DNA of 63,496 nt, the filler included, from Aduncisulcus paluster (Eukaryota), in NCBI GenBank assembly GCA_024181965.1. It is 39 parts of 39 records of this genome, joined end to end, with 100 filler letters (N's around TTAATTAATTAA, not from the genome) between each part and the next. Parts side by side here need not be neighbours in the genome. Positions count along the whole stretch, not along the records: positions 18,281 to 19,621 come from BQXS01004453.1; 38 more parts are not named here. One strand, written 5' to 3'. The notes beneath the pieces are model-generated. The model saw only the letters and a list, made by a program, of their open reading frames with translations. It ran no database searches and had not been told where the DNA came from. Shown here piece by piece: positions 11,622-23,441 of this stretch (the first letter of the stretch is position 1; each line of letters starts with the position of its first letter). A program made the position numbers and the translations under genes.

Positions 11622-13364
11622 ATGAGCGCGTATCCGGAGGCTCCTCGCGCAGGCGGCTCATCGCTCACCCTGACCGTCCGGCTCAATACATCAGCGGTCG
11701 ACTCGCGGCGTGGCGTGGTCCGACTTCATCCGGAAGCCATTGCTGCCCTGGGTATCCGGGAGTGGGATGCGATATCTCTGACCGGGTCGCGAACGACGGC
11801 CGCGGTGGTCGGAGTCGCCCCGCGCACGGTTCCGGCCGGGACCGCCCTGCTCGACGATGTCACGCTGTCGAATGCGGGGCTACGCGAGGACGCGTCTGTC
11901 ATCGTCGCGACGGTGACGGTGTACGGCGCGCGGTCCGTCACGGTAAGTGGTTCTTCCCNNNNNNNNNNNNNNNNNNNNTCTTCCCTTACTACCCAGTCTG
12001 TTTCCTCGGCAACGCTTCGGCTGGCCCTGTTGGGCAAGGTGATGACTGTGGGAGACACCGTTTCACTGCTGCCGCGTGACCTTGGGCCCGGTACGTCCAC
12101 CTCGGAGGCGACGACGGCGCTGGCCCGGTNNNNNNNNNNNNNNNNNNNNCTGGCCCGGTCGGTGGGCATCACCTGGACGTCCGAGCTGCTCACGGTGACC
12201 GCGGTCGATCCGGGCGGCCCCGTCAGTGTGCAACCCAATTCGCTTGTCAGCTGGCAGGGTTCGGCTACGCTAAGCCCCAGCACGCCATCGGCGGTCGCAC
12301 AACCCACTGTCATGACCACCGCAGCGACGCCGCCTCCGGTACCGCCACCGACGATATCCGTGGAAGACCTCAAGGGCTCCCAGGCGCAGGCCACCCGCCT
12401 CACCGAATGGCTCAAACTCGCCCTCGATGAACCCGATCTGCTGAAAACACTGGGCGCCCAACCCAATCTAGGCGTGCTGATATCGGGCCCGGCCGGTGTC
12501 GGCAAGACGGCACTGGCACGCGCCGTCTGTGCATCGCGCACGCTCGTCGAGTTGGACGGGCCGGAAGTGGGAGCCACCACCGCGGACGGACGCCTCAACA
12601 CGATCCGCGAAGCGGTGAGCCGGGTCAGGCAGTCCGGCGGAGTCCTGCTGATATCGGATATCGATGCGCTGCTGCCCGCGGCCGCCGAACCCGTGGCGAC
12701 ACTCATCCTCGCCGAATTGCGCTCCGCGGTATCCACTTCCGGAGTGGCGTTCATCGCTACCACCGCACATCCCGATGCGATCGACGCTCGCTTGCGCGCC
12801 CCCGAGCTCTGCGATCGCGAGCTCGGCCTGAGCCTGCCGGATGCCGCCACCCGCAAATCGCTGCTCGAGGTTCTGCTGGCGAAGGTGCCCTCGCACGAGC
12901 TGCAGCTCGACGAGATTGCCGCACGGACACCCGGTTTCGTCGTGGCCGACCTGGCCGCGCTGGTCCGTGAGGCCGCACTGCGCGCGGCCGCACGCGCCAG
13001 CGAGAAGGCCAGCCCCCCGGCACTCGGCCAGGAAGATCTGGTGGGCGCGCTGTCGGTGATCCGCCCGCTCTCCCGGTCTACCACCGAGGAGGTGGCCATC
13101 GGATCGATCACTCTCGACGATGTCGGCGACATGGTGGCCACCAAACAGGCTCTGACAGAAGCCGTTTTGTGGCCACTGCAGCACCCAGACACCTTTCAGC
13201 GGCTGGGCGTCGACCCTCCCCGCGGTGTTCTGCTCTACGGACCGCCCGGCTGCGGGAAGACGTTCGTGGTGCGGGCACTGGCCAGCTCCGGACGACTGTC
13301 GGTGCATGCCGTCAAGGGCGCCGAGCTGATGGACAAATGGGTCGGAGCCTCCGAACAGGCGGTC
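11622..13364 (+). CDS. Cdc48/VCP-like double AAA+ ATPase (Rv0435c-like), 3' truncated
   Basis: N-domain plus two Walker A motifs, GPAGVGKT and GPPGCGKT; lies downstream of pssA as in mycobacteria. Confidence 0.9.
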
Positions 13365-18280: not shown

Positions 18281-19031
18281 CTTTACCATCTATAAATATT
18301 TTAGCTCCCACTTCACCTGATACTATCACCTCCTCACTATTATCTCTTGTGATATCTAGGTCTGTTTTAGATGTTGGTTTGTTTGGTGCTGTTGTATCAT
18401 CACTTAAATTTGATGTATCATCTCCTTCACCATCTATAGTTCCATATTCTTTTACATTGTCTGTAGTCTTTTGTAAGTTTGTTTGAGCTGTTGTTTTGTT
18501 CACTTTCCGTAGATTCTTATTATCTGTTTCATTTGAGATAACTGTATCGATGATGTTCTCAATTTGTGAATCATCATACTCTGTAAAATCTTTTTTATCA
18601 GTCACAAGAGTTTCTATCATCTTTGGATCTAGATATATACCATTGTCATGATCTCCATCATTATCAAGTGATTGTAAAAATACTGCCATTCTTGTAACTT
18701 CGGTATTGTTTACATCACTTCTATTTACATCTAATACATCTTGAATAAGAACTATCTTATCATCTGGGAGTTTATCTACTCCACCTAGTTTGATATTTCC
18801 ATAGTAAAAATCTACAGCAGACCCAAGAGGACAAGTGAACTCTCCATCTACATTTGTAAAACCTGTTGTAGTTCCACACTCATAACTTGCATTTCCTATG
18901 GCTCCATCTGCTAGAACTCCTGTAACTGTTGGAGTACCACCTCCTGAACTACTTCCTCCTGAACCACATCCACTTAATGCTATTGCTGTTATGGTACTGA
19001 GTGCTAATATTTTCTTTTTTATTGTTTTCAT
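18281..19031 (-). CDS. Large surface lipoprotein (adhesin-like), 3' truncated
   Basis: Lipobox LSGC after MKTIKKK, Gly/Ser linker, Ca-binding-like FLQSLDNDGDHDNGI, Big/Ig-like start DTTAPNKP; AGG-type RBS before the ATG at 19031. Confidence 0.8.
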
Positions 19032-19055: not shown

Positions 19056-19249
19056 ATTGTAAAGTAAACTTTTGGCAACTTTTGTCAATTTGAGCTTTTT
19101 AGCTTCAATTTTGTTTAAATGTTAAAATTTAGAATGTCTCAAAATTCCGTCACCGTTCCGTCAGGAGTTTGTTATAATAATTCTAAATGTAAAAATTTAT
19201 TGAAAAACTTTAATATTTGCCTAAAGTTGACAAAAGTTTTATATACAAT
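19056..19249. promoter_or_regulatory. Divergent promoter pair with matching tandem 10-bp repeats and TACAAT -10 boxes
   Basis: Minus strand: TTGACAAAAG-TTGCCAAAAG-7nt-TACAAT (19088-19056). Plus strand: TTGCCTAAAG-TTGACAAAAG-7nt-TACAAT (19217-19249). Confidence 0.7.
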
Positions 19250-19289
19250 CTTTTAGTAAAGACAAAAACTATAAAAAAAAGGAAAGAAC

Positions 19290-19621
19290 ATGAAGAATAC
19301 AATTAAAGTTATTTTTTTTGTAATGCTATTAACAAATAGTCTGTTTGCTATGCAGATTTTTGTTAAAACTCTAACAGGAAAAACTATTACCTTAGATGTA
19401 GAAGCTGGTGATAGCATAGAAAATGTTAAAGCTAAAATACAAGATAAAGAAGGAATGCCTCCAGAGCAACAAAAACTTATTTTTGCAGGAAAAGAGCTTG
19501 AAAATGGTCGAACATTAAGTGATTATAATATTCAAAAAGAATCAACTTTACATCTCATATTAGTTTTGCGTAATGTACCCCCAACAATTACAAGCACAGC
19601 TCTTACAAATGTAAATGAAGA
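19290..19621 (+). CDS. Secreted protein with an N-terminal eukaryote-like ubiquitin domain followed by a cadherin/Ig-like module (3' truncated)
   Basis: AAGGA RBS; 20-aa signal peptide ending [19 protein letters not shown]...KESTLHL ubiquitin (19350-19571); then [16 protein letters not shown]. Confidence 0.95.
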
Positions 19622-20570: not shown

Positions 20571-21129
20571 TTAACGCGCCCAAAGCGCGTCCAGGGCCGC
20601 GATCAAGATGGGCTTCCTAAACTCTGGCTCGCCGGGGATATTCGCGATCGAGGCGATGAACGCCAGGATTTGCTCGGCAGTGATGTCGCTGCGCAGCTCA
20701 CCAGACCGGTGCGCCGCCTCAACCANNNNNNNNNNNNNNNNNNNNAATGCGGGCGAAACCATCGTGGAACGCCGGGCTGGCGTCACCTGCAAGTTCGAGC
20801 AGTTCGCTCGCCAGGACGCGCTTATGCAGGAAATAGTCGTAGAAGCGATACAGCCATGCCTGCAATCTCGCTCCGGCGGTCGCGCCCTCGCTAGTTTCGG
20901 CCGCGCGGCAGATCGCGGCTATCTCCTCACCGTAAAGAGCCTCCAGCAAGATGCGTCGGTCGGCGAAGTTGCGGTAAAGGGTGGCCGAGCCGATATTGGC
21001 GCGGCGCGCGATCTCGGCCATCGACACATCTGCCTGGGGATCAGCGAAGGCCGCCCGTGCGGCCGCGAGGATCTTGTCGCGGTTACGTTGCGCATCAACT
21101 CTGCGACGGGCGGGCCGTTCCTGTGTCAT
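20571..21129 (-). CDS. TetR/AcrR family regulator
   Basis: RRVDAQRNRDKILAAA...SMAEIARRANIGSATLYRNF HTH; split by an N gap. Confidence 0.92.
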
Positions 21130-21162
21130 GCCTGGCACCTCGAATTACGATCATATTCTCGA

Positions 21163-23021: not shown

Positions 23022-23441
23022 TTGTCCAAACCGGCTATGGCGTACCGGTTGCTTTCGGCTAGACACTCGGTGAATGCGGATGGCATCGACGCACCCGAAT
23101 GCTTGCTGGTGGTCTGGGGTAAGGCCGTGACACGCCCAAAGTTTCGCGGCGCGGAAGCGCGCTTGGATGAGCTGGAGTGGCAGGTCAATGCGGTCTGCCG
23201 CGGGATGTCGACGGACATCTTCTACTTCGCCGAAACGCAGCGCGGCACCTTGCGGAAGCAGTACGAGATACAGGCGAAAAAGATCTGCAACGAGTGCCCG
23301 GTGCGAATGCCGTGCGCGGCTTATGCGATAAGAACCGATGAACCGCATGGTGTTTGGGGTGCGATGACAACGCGCGAGCGCCGAATAGCTATGACGCGGT
23401 CACAGCGTAAGTCCGTCGCAGCGGATCAGCTCACATCTTGA
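23022..23441 (+). CDS. WhiB-family Fe-S transcription factor (start uncertain)
   Basis: AVC...AKKICNECPVRMPC...HGVWGAMTTRERR: four Cys plus GVWG. Confidence 0.9.
   Translation: MSKPAMAYRLLSARHSVNADGIDAPECLLVVWGKAVTRPKFRGAEARLDELEWQVNAVCRGMSTDIFYFAETQRGTLRKQYEIQAKKICNECPVRMPCAAYAIRTDEPHGVWGAMTTRERRIAMTRSQRKSVAADQLTS

Follow-up and report, generated by a model that had tools for sequence, protein, structure and literature searches.

Textbooks generally present ubiquitin as a covalent tag that belongs strictly to eukaryotes and works inside the cell. The locus described here raises the question of what an almost canonical ubiquitin is doing at the start of what reads as an exported bacterial protein, whether that gene is genuine, and what the ubiquitin is joined to. 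It lies at positions 19290-19621 (plus strand) of a 63,496-nt stretch of DNA from GenBank assembly GCA_024181965.1, filed under Aduncisulcus paluster; this whole stretch (positions 1-63496) is called the window. We report that it preserves the 5' end of an Arcobacteraceae gene for a polymorphic, predicted extracytoplasmic binding protein whose constant head is a near-canonical ubiquitin, in a marine, cultivable-type lineage of Campylobacterota. The pattern recurs in hundreds of species, and relatives put the same head on autotransporters.

A near-canonical ubiquitin follows a predicted signal peptide

The window consists of 39 short contigs (1.0-3.7 kb; GC from 0.27 to 0.68), joined by artificial N44-TTAATTAATTAA-N44 spacers, and is not one genome stretch. 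The gene is placed at the 3' end of an AT-rich contig at 18281-19621 (1341 bp, GC 0.31, spacers on both sides), with a GC-rich contig adjoining downstream. Its open reading frame (ORF) is open from an ATG at 19290 into the run of Ns at the contig end, and no further pieces of the gene were found in the window beyond these 110 codons; because the window is made of joined short contigs, the ORF ends after codon 110 through the contig end and not through biology. A Shine-Dalgarno-like AGGA (19280-19283, plus strand) can be read directly six bases 5' of the ATG, and a sigma-70 pattern scan of the intergenic region gave 2 hits against 1.6 expected, which is not above chance.

The first 20 residues (19290-19349, plus strand) have a basic n-region, a hydrophobic core, Ala at position -1 and no Cys, hence no lipobox Cys. 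These n-, h- and c-region features predict a Sec-type signal peptide that signal peptidase I would cut between LFA and MQ. The ubiquitin domain comes directly afterward (19350-19571, plus strand; precursor residues 21-94). It aligns gap-free with residues 1-74 of PDB polyubiquitin-C chains (E ~1e-38; per-domain ~1e-35) and matches Pfam PF00240 over profile positions 1-69 of 72 (E 1.3e-28, 99 bits, cut-off 25.4). A script count gave 63/74 identities (85%) to animal-type ubiquitin, for which the reference in all our identity counts was read from a contaminant contig (L075). Eleven residues are exchanged: E16D, P19A, S20G, T22S, I36M, D39E, R42K, Q49E, D52N, V70I and R72V. All seven lysines (K6, K11, K27, K29, K33, K48 and K63) are retained, as are L8, I44 and H68; in what we take to be the canonical recognition patch (L8, I44, H68, V70), only V70 is changed, to I.

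The C-terminus departs from this picture. Where a conjugation-competent ubiquitin has LRLRGG with a free Gly76, residues 71-76 here read L-V-L-R-N-V, with N-V in place of G75-G76, and the chain runs on into the next domain. Since there is no free C-terminal Gly-Gly and the chain continues, the head cannot be activated or conjugated. Judged by its sequence, it is a ubiquitin in fold and sequence and yet no conjugatable modifier. The initial annotation, working by hand alignment, had arrived at the same 63/74 identity, the same retained lysines and L8/I44, the V70I, R42K and R72V exchanges and the loss of the diglycine, and had called the domain eukaryotic-type and non-conjugatable; the script count and the PDB and Pfam matches reproduce this description.

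The gene sits in a bacterial chromosome

Genome-level work was done on the nearest genome, G001, a closed single-contig 2.35-Mb genome of Arcobacteraceae (99% complete), with which 31% of the window's sampled words are shared. The contig at 18281-19621 is 96-97% identical to G001:C1:1775376-1776726, and the G001 ortholog of the ubiquitin gene is intact, encoding 878 aa (10396-13032 of locus L005, whose coordinates are used below for this gene). A locus from a genome of this family (L088) is identical to one from a Malaciobacter halophilus record (L058), labelled Arcobacteraceae, Campylobacterota. Whole or in part, the stretch also occurs in 20 public runs from 16 studies, labelled as mollusc, microbial-mat, seawater and plastisphere metagenomes.

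Contigs of four runs were aligned to the G001 gene, in which the signal-peptide/ubiquitin junction lies at 10455/10456 and the ubiquitin ends at 10677. A mollusc contig (X2 record 21) spans 10321-10744 and continues, thus bridging both ends of the ubiquitin; a microbial-mat contig (X4 record 27) spans 9441-10703, and a seawater contig (X11 record 3) spans 10146-10652 with 0 mismatches. A run that we guess to be RNA (X12) holds one 161-nt contig, on 10379-10539, which is not counted as evidence of transcription, and the RNA runs X18-X20 contain 0.05-0.07 of the sampled words.

The obvious concern is an artefact, either a chimeric assembly of bacterial and eukaryotic sequence or the contig of a eukaryote in a mixed assembly, and the initial annotation had itself raised both. 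The fragmented mixed nature of the window, with its 39 contigs of such different GC content, speaks for caution, and about a dozen of 80 related loci considered below are short polyubiquitin contigs, apparent eukaryotic contamination of bacterial assemblies. Neither form of artefact survives, because the gene is intact within a closed bacterial chromosome and independent metagenome contigs bridge its junctions. Full-length homologs (P0029 and P0030) are moreover present in NCBI and ENA data, and codon usage is host-like, with a third-position GC content (GC3) of 0.12 in both the ubiquitin segment and the remaining ORF. An artefact is left with virtually no chance, and the Campylobacterota assignment first proposed for the gene is borne out by the family of G001. 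The fully host-like codon usage also means that any transfer would be old, or from an equally AT-rich source.

The ubiquitin heads a modular Ig/propeller protein

In the 878-aa G001 protein, the signal peptide (residues 1-20) and ubiquitin (residues 21-94, by Pfam) are followed by part of a He_PIG Ig-like domain (L005 10675-10860), a propeller of six NHL repeats (PF01436, E 9.4e-51), a putative second He_PIG part (L005 11833-11955), an SbsC_C-type Ig domain (residues 510-592, E 2.4e-16), a Thr/Pro-rich linker and ~270 residues of further, putatively Ig-like C-terminal modules. For the C-terminal 279 residues, the structure Atlas gave He_PIG/Ig-like leads only, with scores <0.9 and TM <0.5. The corresponding start of the He_PIG domain in the window (19572-19621, plus strand) is ended by the contig end after 16 residues, too short for scoring alone, and the assignment rests on profile matches of the same stretch in G001 and P0029.

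The match to He_PIG (PF05345) before the propeller is confined to the first part of the profile, namely to positions 1-58 of 96 (E 1.9e-6, 28.6 bits, cut-off 24) in G001 and 2-56 of 96 in P0029, and this half-profile match recurs in a modular Arcobacteraceae protein (P0098) and in a relative from genome G071. After the propeller, the sequence resumes with an LSGTPT...D.G motif. Because of the half-profile match on one side and this resumption on the other, the propeller appears to be inserted into a loop of a He_PIG Ig domain, which would thus be split. An AF2 model of residues 21-520 (mean pLDDT 84.4) gives a six-bladed propeller at 97-99, the ubiquitin at 66-82 and the two flanking beta-stretches at 53-75. 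Counting against a split domain, the post-propeller half alone has no He_PIG match in Pfam, and the reading leans on a half-profile match together with the low-confidence part of the model (pLDDT 53-75). The nested He_PIG/propeller unit occurs twice in P0098 and, by eye, in G071 (L091 4959-8231). The protein was first described as a ubiquitin on a cadherin/Ig-like stalk; fusion to a He_PIG-type Ig domain holds, and the simple cadherin stalk gives way to a He_PIG domain that is apparently interrupted by a swappable beta-propeller.

A recombining propeller cassette lies between a constant head and a constant body

Two full-length homologs stood among the 120 matches listed, P0029 (901 aa, NCBI) and P0030 (909 aa, ENA), and their identity to the G001 protein (P0001) differs sharply by region. 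The signal peptide is identical in both (20/20), and the ubiquitin is nearly so (70/74 in P0029 and 73/74 in P0030). Identity is 36/52 and 35/52, respectively, in the N-terminal half of the He_PIG domain, only 81/298 and 86/298 (27-29%) in the propeller, and 36/42 and 34/42 in the C-terminal half of He_PIG. It reaches 172/180 and 176/180 over residues 521-700 and 169/178 and 168/178 over residues 701-878. Head and C-terminal body are thus 94-100% identical among alleles (94-98% for the C-terminal 358 residues), while the propellers of P0029 and P0030 are of a non-NHL repeat type ('GFS...IPYVVYKD...VMKF') and share only 163/350 residues with each other. The 110-residue window peptide is 99.1% identical to P0030 (109/110), 96.3% to G001 and 91.8% to P0029.

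The nucleotide sequences give the same picture. Between the window and G001, 0/306 nt differ over the signal peptide, the ubiquitin and the following NVPPTITS, against 29/751 columns in the upstream gene and 13/258 columns in the intergenic region. With 32 substitutions in 1009 flank columns, ~9.7 would be expected in 306 nt, and the Poisson chance of finding none is ~6e-5 by our own arithmetic. Identity ends abruptly: positions 19215-19597 show no differences from G001, and 8 substitutions fall in the next 24 nt, which places the left recombination breakpoint of the He_PIG/propeller cassette at 19597-19598 (plus strand). The breakpoint at 19597 is also visible as a loose end in a mollusc-metagenome contig. 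In that mollusc run (X2), the NHL cassette is uncovered, and loose ends at ~10744, 11789 and 11843 (L005), read in frame by eye, correspond to P0030-like and P0029-like junctions, so that both non-NHL junctions occur in one run; the microbial-mat run covers the NHL allele throughout.

Together, the regional identities, the breakpoint and the metagenome junctions show a locus whose ubiquitin head and body stay constant around a He_PIG/propeller cassette that recombines. The junction in the window agrees with the non-NHL allele P0030. For the window copy, it weighs against this picture that the cassette lies beyond the contig end and that just 16 residues beyond the ubiquitin match P0030.

Sparse relatives carry the same head on other bodies

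With the 110-aa query, matches were found in 6/184 species genomes of Arcobacteraceae, spread over 4/22 genera, and in 1/28 genomes of the genus of G001. An even sample of the phylum gave 3/401 matching genomes, and outside the family the figure was 1/377. In two sister genera, genomes G040 (475 aa, L092 6244-7671) and G151 (485 aa, L093/L087) encode a signal peptide, a ubiquitin 62-63/74 identical to that of animals, a low-complexity linker and an autotransporter barrel (PF03797; E 5.8e-40 and 1.6e-47, respectively), so that ubiquitin is the sole recognisable passenger. These two genes lie among housekeeping genes, with no conserved partner and no immunity-like neighbour around them. The genome of Malaciobacter halophilus (G150) has the same signal peptide and ubiquitin head, ended by the contig end. 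G155 has a diverged ubiquitin with 41/74 identities to the animal protein; the 300-residue C-terminal part behind it has no Pfam match, looks similar to the corresponding parts of the autotransporters and could form a barrel. In G071, a strongly diverged ubiquitin sits on a protein of at least 1091 aa with He_PIG/propeller units and cadherin-like repeats (by eye, and by Pfam on the first 600 residues).

The body has a different distribution from the head. For the C-terminal 358 residues of the protein, a search of 1.84 billion cluster representatives gave just 44 relatives (E <= 0.001). In the 21 best of these that were scanned, SbsC_C occurs in 20/21, and several have NHL, FG-GAP or RCC1-like propellers, He_PIG, cadherin or SLH domains; PF00240 was found in 1/21, this protein alone. 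Since the body relatives scanned are without ubiquitin, the ubiquitin was added to a pre-existing modular surface-type protein family. Among the 120 full-length matches listed, PF00240 occurs in 4, one of which is a polyubiquitin. The closest architectural parallel is with modular He_PIG/NHL/cadherin proteins such as P0098 (NCBI 'putative Ig domain-containing protein [Arcobacteraceae bacterium]'), which share the He_PIG half, NHL propeller and second He_PIG half as well as Ig/cadherin repeats and, unlike the G001 protein, have no ubiquitin.

Signal-peptide ubiquitins form a wide class

A search of bacteria and archaea, with one genome per species, showed that at least 403 of 600 pattern-matched stretches encode a relative, so what had first looked like an isolated oddity belongs to a large set of signal-peptide-plus-ubiquitin genes that spans many phyla. 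We examined 86 ORFs, namely the best 80 of these at least 403 loci, five loci from the family and G001 (the identical L058 and L088 are both counted). A recognisable ubiquitin start was present in 85/86. In 64/86 loci, a signal-peptide-like prefix ends directly before Met1 of the ubiquitin, and 51/64 of these have Ala at -1. The dipeptide 'FA' at -2/-1 recurs in 21/64 loci from many phyla, which may reflect either shared ancestry of the module or a constraint on the cleavage site.

G75-G76 is kept in just 5/63 signal-peptide ubiquitins, and what follows the head ranges from nothing to ~1200 residues: heads were seen in front of propeller adhesins, autotransporters, PEP-CTERM-like tails and long Ig proteins. 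Carriers include Pseudomonadota, Bacillota, Bacteroidota, Verrucomicrobiota, Planctomycetota, Fibrobacterota, Actinomycetota and others, complete genomes among them. D16 and/or S22 is found in 53/63 signal-peptide ubiquitins, and 10 of 11 polyubiquitin-type contaminant contigs have E16/T22 (the eleventh, L021, has D16); this signature hints only weakly at a common bacterial lineage. Full-text literature searches, excluding subscription journals and supplements, turned up no account of a signal-peptide ubiquitin class, of autotransporters that carry ubiquitin or of any ubiquitin in Arcobacteraceae. Proteins of this kind thus seem to be common in bacteria and undescribed.

Two further observations concern variants of the head. 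In the seawater run X11, other ubiquitin genes are at least 88% alike in nucleotides, over the ubiquitin core only (L005 10452-10659); by eye, one of them reads ...LVLRLRGGC-stop and another has a different hydrophobic leader. Among plasmid records, two matches (H2 and H3) are large replicons of Pseudoalteromonas shioyasakiensis, one of them from abalone, whose proteins are annotated 'Ig-like domain-containing' and 'tandem-95 repeat' and have N-termini ~40% identical to the signal peptide and ubiquitin; they are possibly diverged heads on giant adhesins.

Comparison with characterised ubiquitins

The only characterised exported bacterial ubiquitins that the literature searches turned up are BfUbb and BoUbb (PMC3352274, PMC5705921, PMC11467351). 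In PMC3352274, BfUbb of Bacteroides fragilis is described as a stand-alone, exported protein with a signal sequence, no Gly-Gly, a C-terminal Cys and 63% identity to human ubiquitin. PMC11467351 describes BfUbb and BoUbb (of B. fragilis and B. ovatus) as antibacterial toxins that are imported through a SusCD-type transporter (ButCD) and act on a periplasmic PPIase. BfUbb and the window protein are alike in being bacterially encoded ubiquitins of eukaryotic type with a signal sequence directly in front and no terminal Gly-Gly. They differ in that the window ubiquitin belongs to another phylum, is 85% identical to the animal protein, and is, as the G001 ortholog shows, the first domain of an 878-aa Ig/propeller chain without Cys in its ubiquitin part. 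Because BfUbb is small, stand-alone and ends in Cys, we do not file the window protein in its family. An exported bacterial ubiquitin is therefore already known, and it is the constant ubiquitin head with a recombining propeller and an Ig body that is the distinctive architecture.

This precedent suggests a weapon of the BfUbb kind, in which the head, released or attached, would poison a periplasmic target of competitors and the propeller would choose the victim's receptor. The activity reported for BfUbb and BoUbb is indeed antibacterial (PMC11467351), and a conserved effector-like module next to a polymorphic receptor-binding cassette resembles bacteriocin logic. The ubiquitin is, however, internal to an 878-aa chain with no recognisable release site, it lacks the C-terminal Cys described for BfUbb in PMC3352274, and the SusCD-type importers were characterised in Bacteroides. 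The genomic surroundings point both ways: an 84-aa lipoprotein gene begins 2 nt after the stop codon in G001, and the G040 and G151 autotransporter genes have no immunity-like neighbour. We consider such a weapon very unlikely.

Eukaryotic ubiquitin and its precursors (polyubiquitin, Ub-eL40, Ub-eS31) are alike in sequence and fold, in the lysines, in the L8/I44/H68 patch and in having ubiquitin first in the fusion. In contrast to them, the window protein has no Gly-Gly and hence no processing site of the deubiquitinase (DUB) type, starts with a predicted bacterial signal peptide and is encoded with bacterial codon usage in a bacterial chromosome. Prokaryotic conjugation systems of the Bil/Bub type, Pup and SAMP, in which a cytoplasmic ubiquitin-like protein with a reactive C-terminus is encoded beside E1-, E2- or JAB-type enzymes, are likewise different, since the G001 protein has a signal peptide, no free C-terminus and no recognised E1, E2 or JAB gene next to it; none was recognised in the 20-kb G001 locus, in which 16 ORFs were read and 4 of them scanned with Pfam.

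A possible role as an outward-facing recognition module

Mean conservation across the 63 signal-peptide ubiquitins is 0.938 at 17 functional-surface positions, 0.944 at 14 core positions and 0.505 in the tail (71-76), although these values are inflated because the loci are the 80 most query-like of at least 403; the lists of core and surface positions are those we assume. Since the functional surface is conserved like the core while the tail decays, and since the autotransporters display nothing else, we favor a reading in which the surface of the head is recognised by a partner. The head would then be an outward-presented, non-covalent and non-conjugatable recognition module on a Sec-exported modular protein, a proposal to which we give an even chance of being right.

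Under this proposal, Sec export and removal of the signal peptide would leave Met1 of ubiquitin as the mature N-terminus. The protein would then leave the periplasm, and the type II secretion cluster of G001 (L175 1424-11558; G001:C1 about 1547400-1557600), which comprises GspG, pseudopilins, a PDZ protein, a 668-aa GspD, GspE and GspF, could carry it out. Surface-associated or released, it would act as a binding protein, with the swappable propeller setting what is bound and the constant head serving as a ligand or mimic for a partner that recognises the canonical ubiquitin surface. On the eukaryotic side, such a partner could be a host's or grazer's ubiquitin-binding protein; on the bacterial side, it could be a receptor, as BfUbb has. 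As an aside on secretins, long frames (672 and 722 aa) occur in G001 and G071, and the autotransporter carriers have frames of 472-567 aa only; with n = 4, this is anecdotal.

Several observations weigh against this proposal. The carriers, many of which live freely in soil or freshwater, have no obvious host in common. The canonical surface is lost in G071, where changes read by eye on the alignment include I44M, H68S, V70Y, K48N and K63A, and the ubiquitin of G155 has kept only its 41/74 identities. In the 878-aa protein, neither Pfam nor the Atlas recognised an anchor, a barrel or a sorting signal, and the classical autotransporter barrel PF03797 had no Pfam match. A profile search found no GspL (PF05134) in G001, G040, G151 or G071. 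Finally, cleavage, export past the periplasm and surface exposure of this protein are all inferred.

A rival is a structural explanation, in which ubiquitin serves as a stable, fast-folding and protease-resistant beta-grasp cap that protects the N-terminus or aids export or folding and has no reader at all. Such a cap would account for a module at the extreme N-terminus of very different proteins, for the loss of the canonical surface tolerated by the same-architecture homologs G071 and G155, and for carriers in many habitats without a shared host; a body that works without ubiquitin, as 20 of the 21 body-sharing proteins imply, fits as well. It explains less well why autotransporters should carry ubiquitin as their sole recognisable passenger, with nothing else to cap or help, why surface positions should be as conserved as the core while the tail is not (in the biased sample noted above), and why the signal-peptide/ubiquitin module should be 100% nucleotide-identical between two strains whose flanks differ by 4-5%. 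A cap is possible, and we think it somewhat unlikely.

A bolder form of the recognition proposal is that bacteria of many phyla, here Arcobacteraceae of molluscs, mats and seawater, export genuine eukaryote-type ubiquitin as a mimic aimed at eukaryotic cells, for instance hosts or protist grazers, with the recombining propeller choosing the target, and thus possess a programmable adhesin or effector. We regard this as unlikely. If it were true, the propeller would attach to the surface of a eukaryotic cell or a microbe, while the head, which could not be removed, would be recognised by ubiquitin receptors or lengthened by ligases of the host. More generally, recognition of the head by ubiquitin-binding proteins would amount to molecular mimicry between bacteria and eukaryotes, of a kind that is widespread and unstudied; were the head a stable cap and nothing more, it would still be striking that bacteria had domesticated a eukaryotic domain for their cell envelope. 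The Arcobacteraceae examples lend themselves to testing, since there is a closed genome and the natural alleles of the cassette are defined, and the lineage should be experimentally tractable.

Origin of the ubiquitin module

A ubiquitin tree of 83 rows and 72 columns had strong support on 0/72 inner branches and allows no statement on the donor, on the number of acquisitions or on monophyly of the Arcobacteraceae sequences; L090 (indel-bearing and very divergent), L038 (68 aa, too short) and L076 (start motif unmatched) were left out. No recent donor was found among the 174 loci compared, which include 80 IMG/VR loci, mostly giant-virus metagenome-assembled genomes (MAGs): the best nucleotide identity outside G001 was 82.5%, reached both by a MAG contig that encodes a free ubiquitin (L037) and by a giant-virus MAG (L151). 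There were 0 matches among 50,697 phage records and 3, none of them close, among 72,556 plasmid records, and thus no sign in these records of the module riding a known mobile element.

Neighbouring genes and composition of the window

Upstream of the ubiquitin gene, the window contig carries the 5' part of a divergent lipoprotein gene (MKTIKKKILALSTITAIALSGCGSG...; 18281-19031, minus strand; L005 7422-10193), identified by ORF reading. Its 250-aa fragment in the window has no Pfam match; in G001, the full protein has 904 aa from the lipoprotein Met (the ORF has 923 aa from an upstream TTG) and five DUF285 repeats (PF03382, E 5.1e-134). Downstream in G001, the 84-aa lipoprotein gene is joined by one for a 453-aa lipoprotein with a weak Fib_succ_major match, so that, with the divergent lipoprotein, a small cluster of envelope-protein genes surrounds the ubiquitin gene. 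Other neighbours in the 20-kb locus, read from their translations, comprise sensors and regulators of two-component systems as well as a GGDEF protein. Compared with five genomes of the same genus, the 20-kb locus gave scattered ~70% matches and none over the 7.4-14.8 kb surface-protein stretch, a level of divergence at which an island is not proven.

The rest of the window bears on the assembly as a whole. The second contig downstream of the ubiquitin contig (21365-23441) codes for a WhiB-family regulator (23022-23438), and the GC-rich contigs also carry a TetR gene (20746-21138), beside AT-rich Arcobacteraceae-like contigs. Because AT-rich contigs sit beside a GC-rich, WhiB-bearing contig, the assembly mixes at least two organisms; it is contaminated or co-cultured, and highly fragmented.

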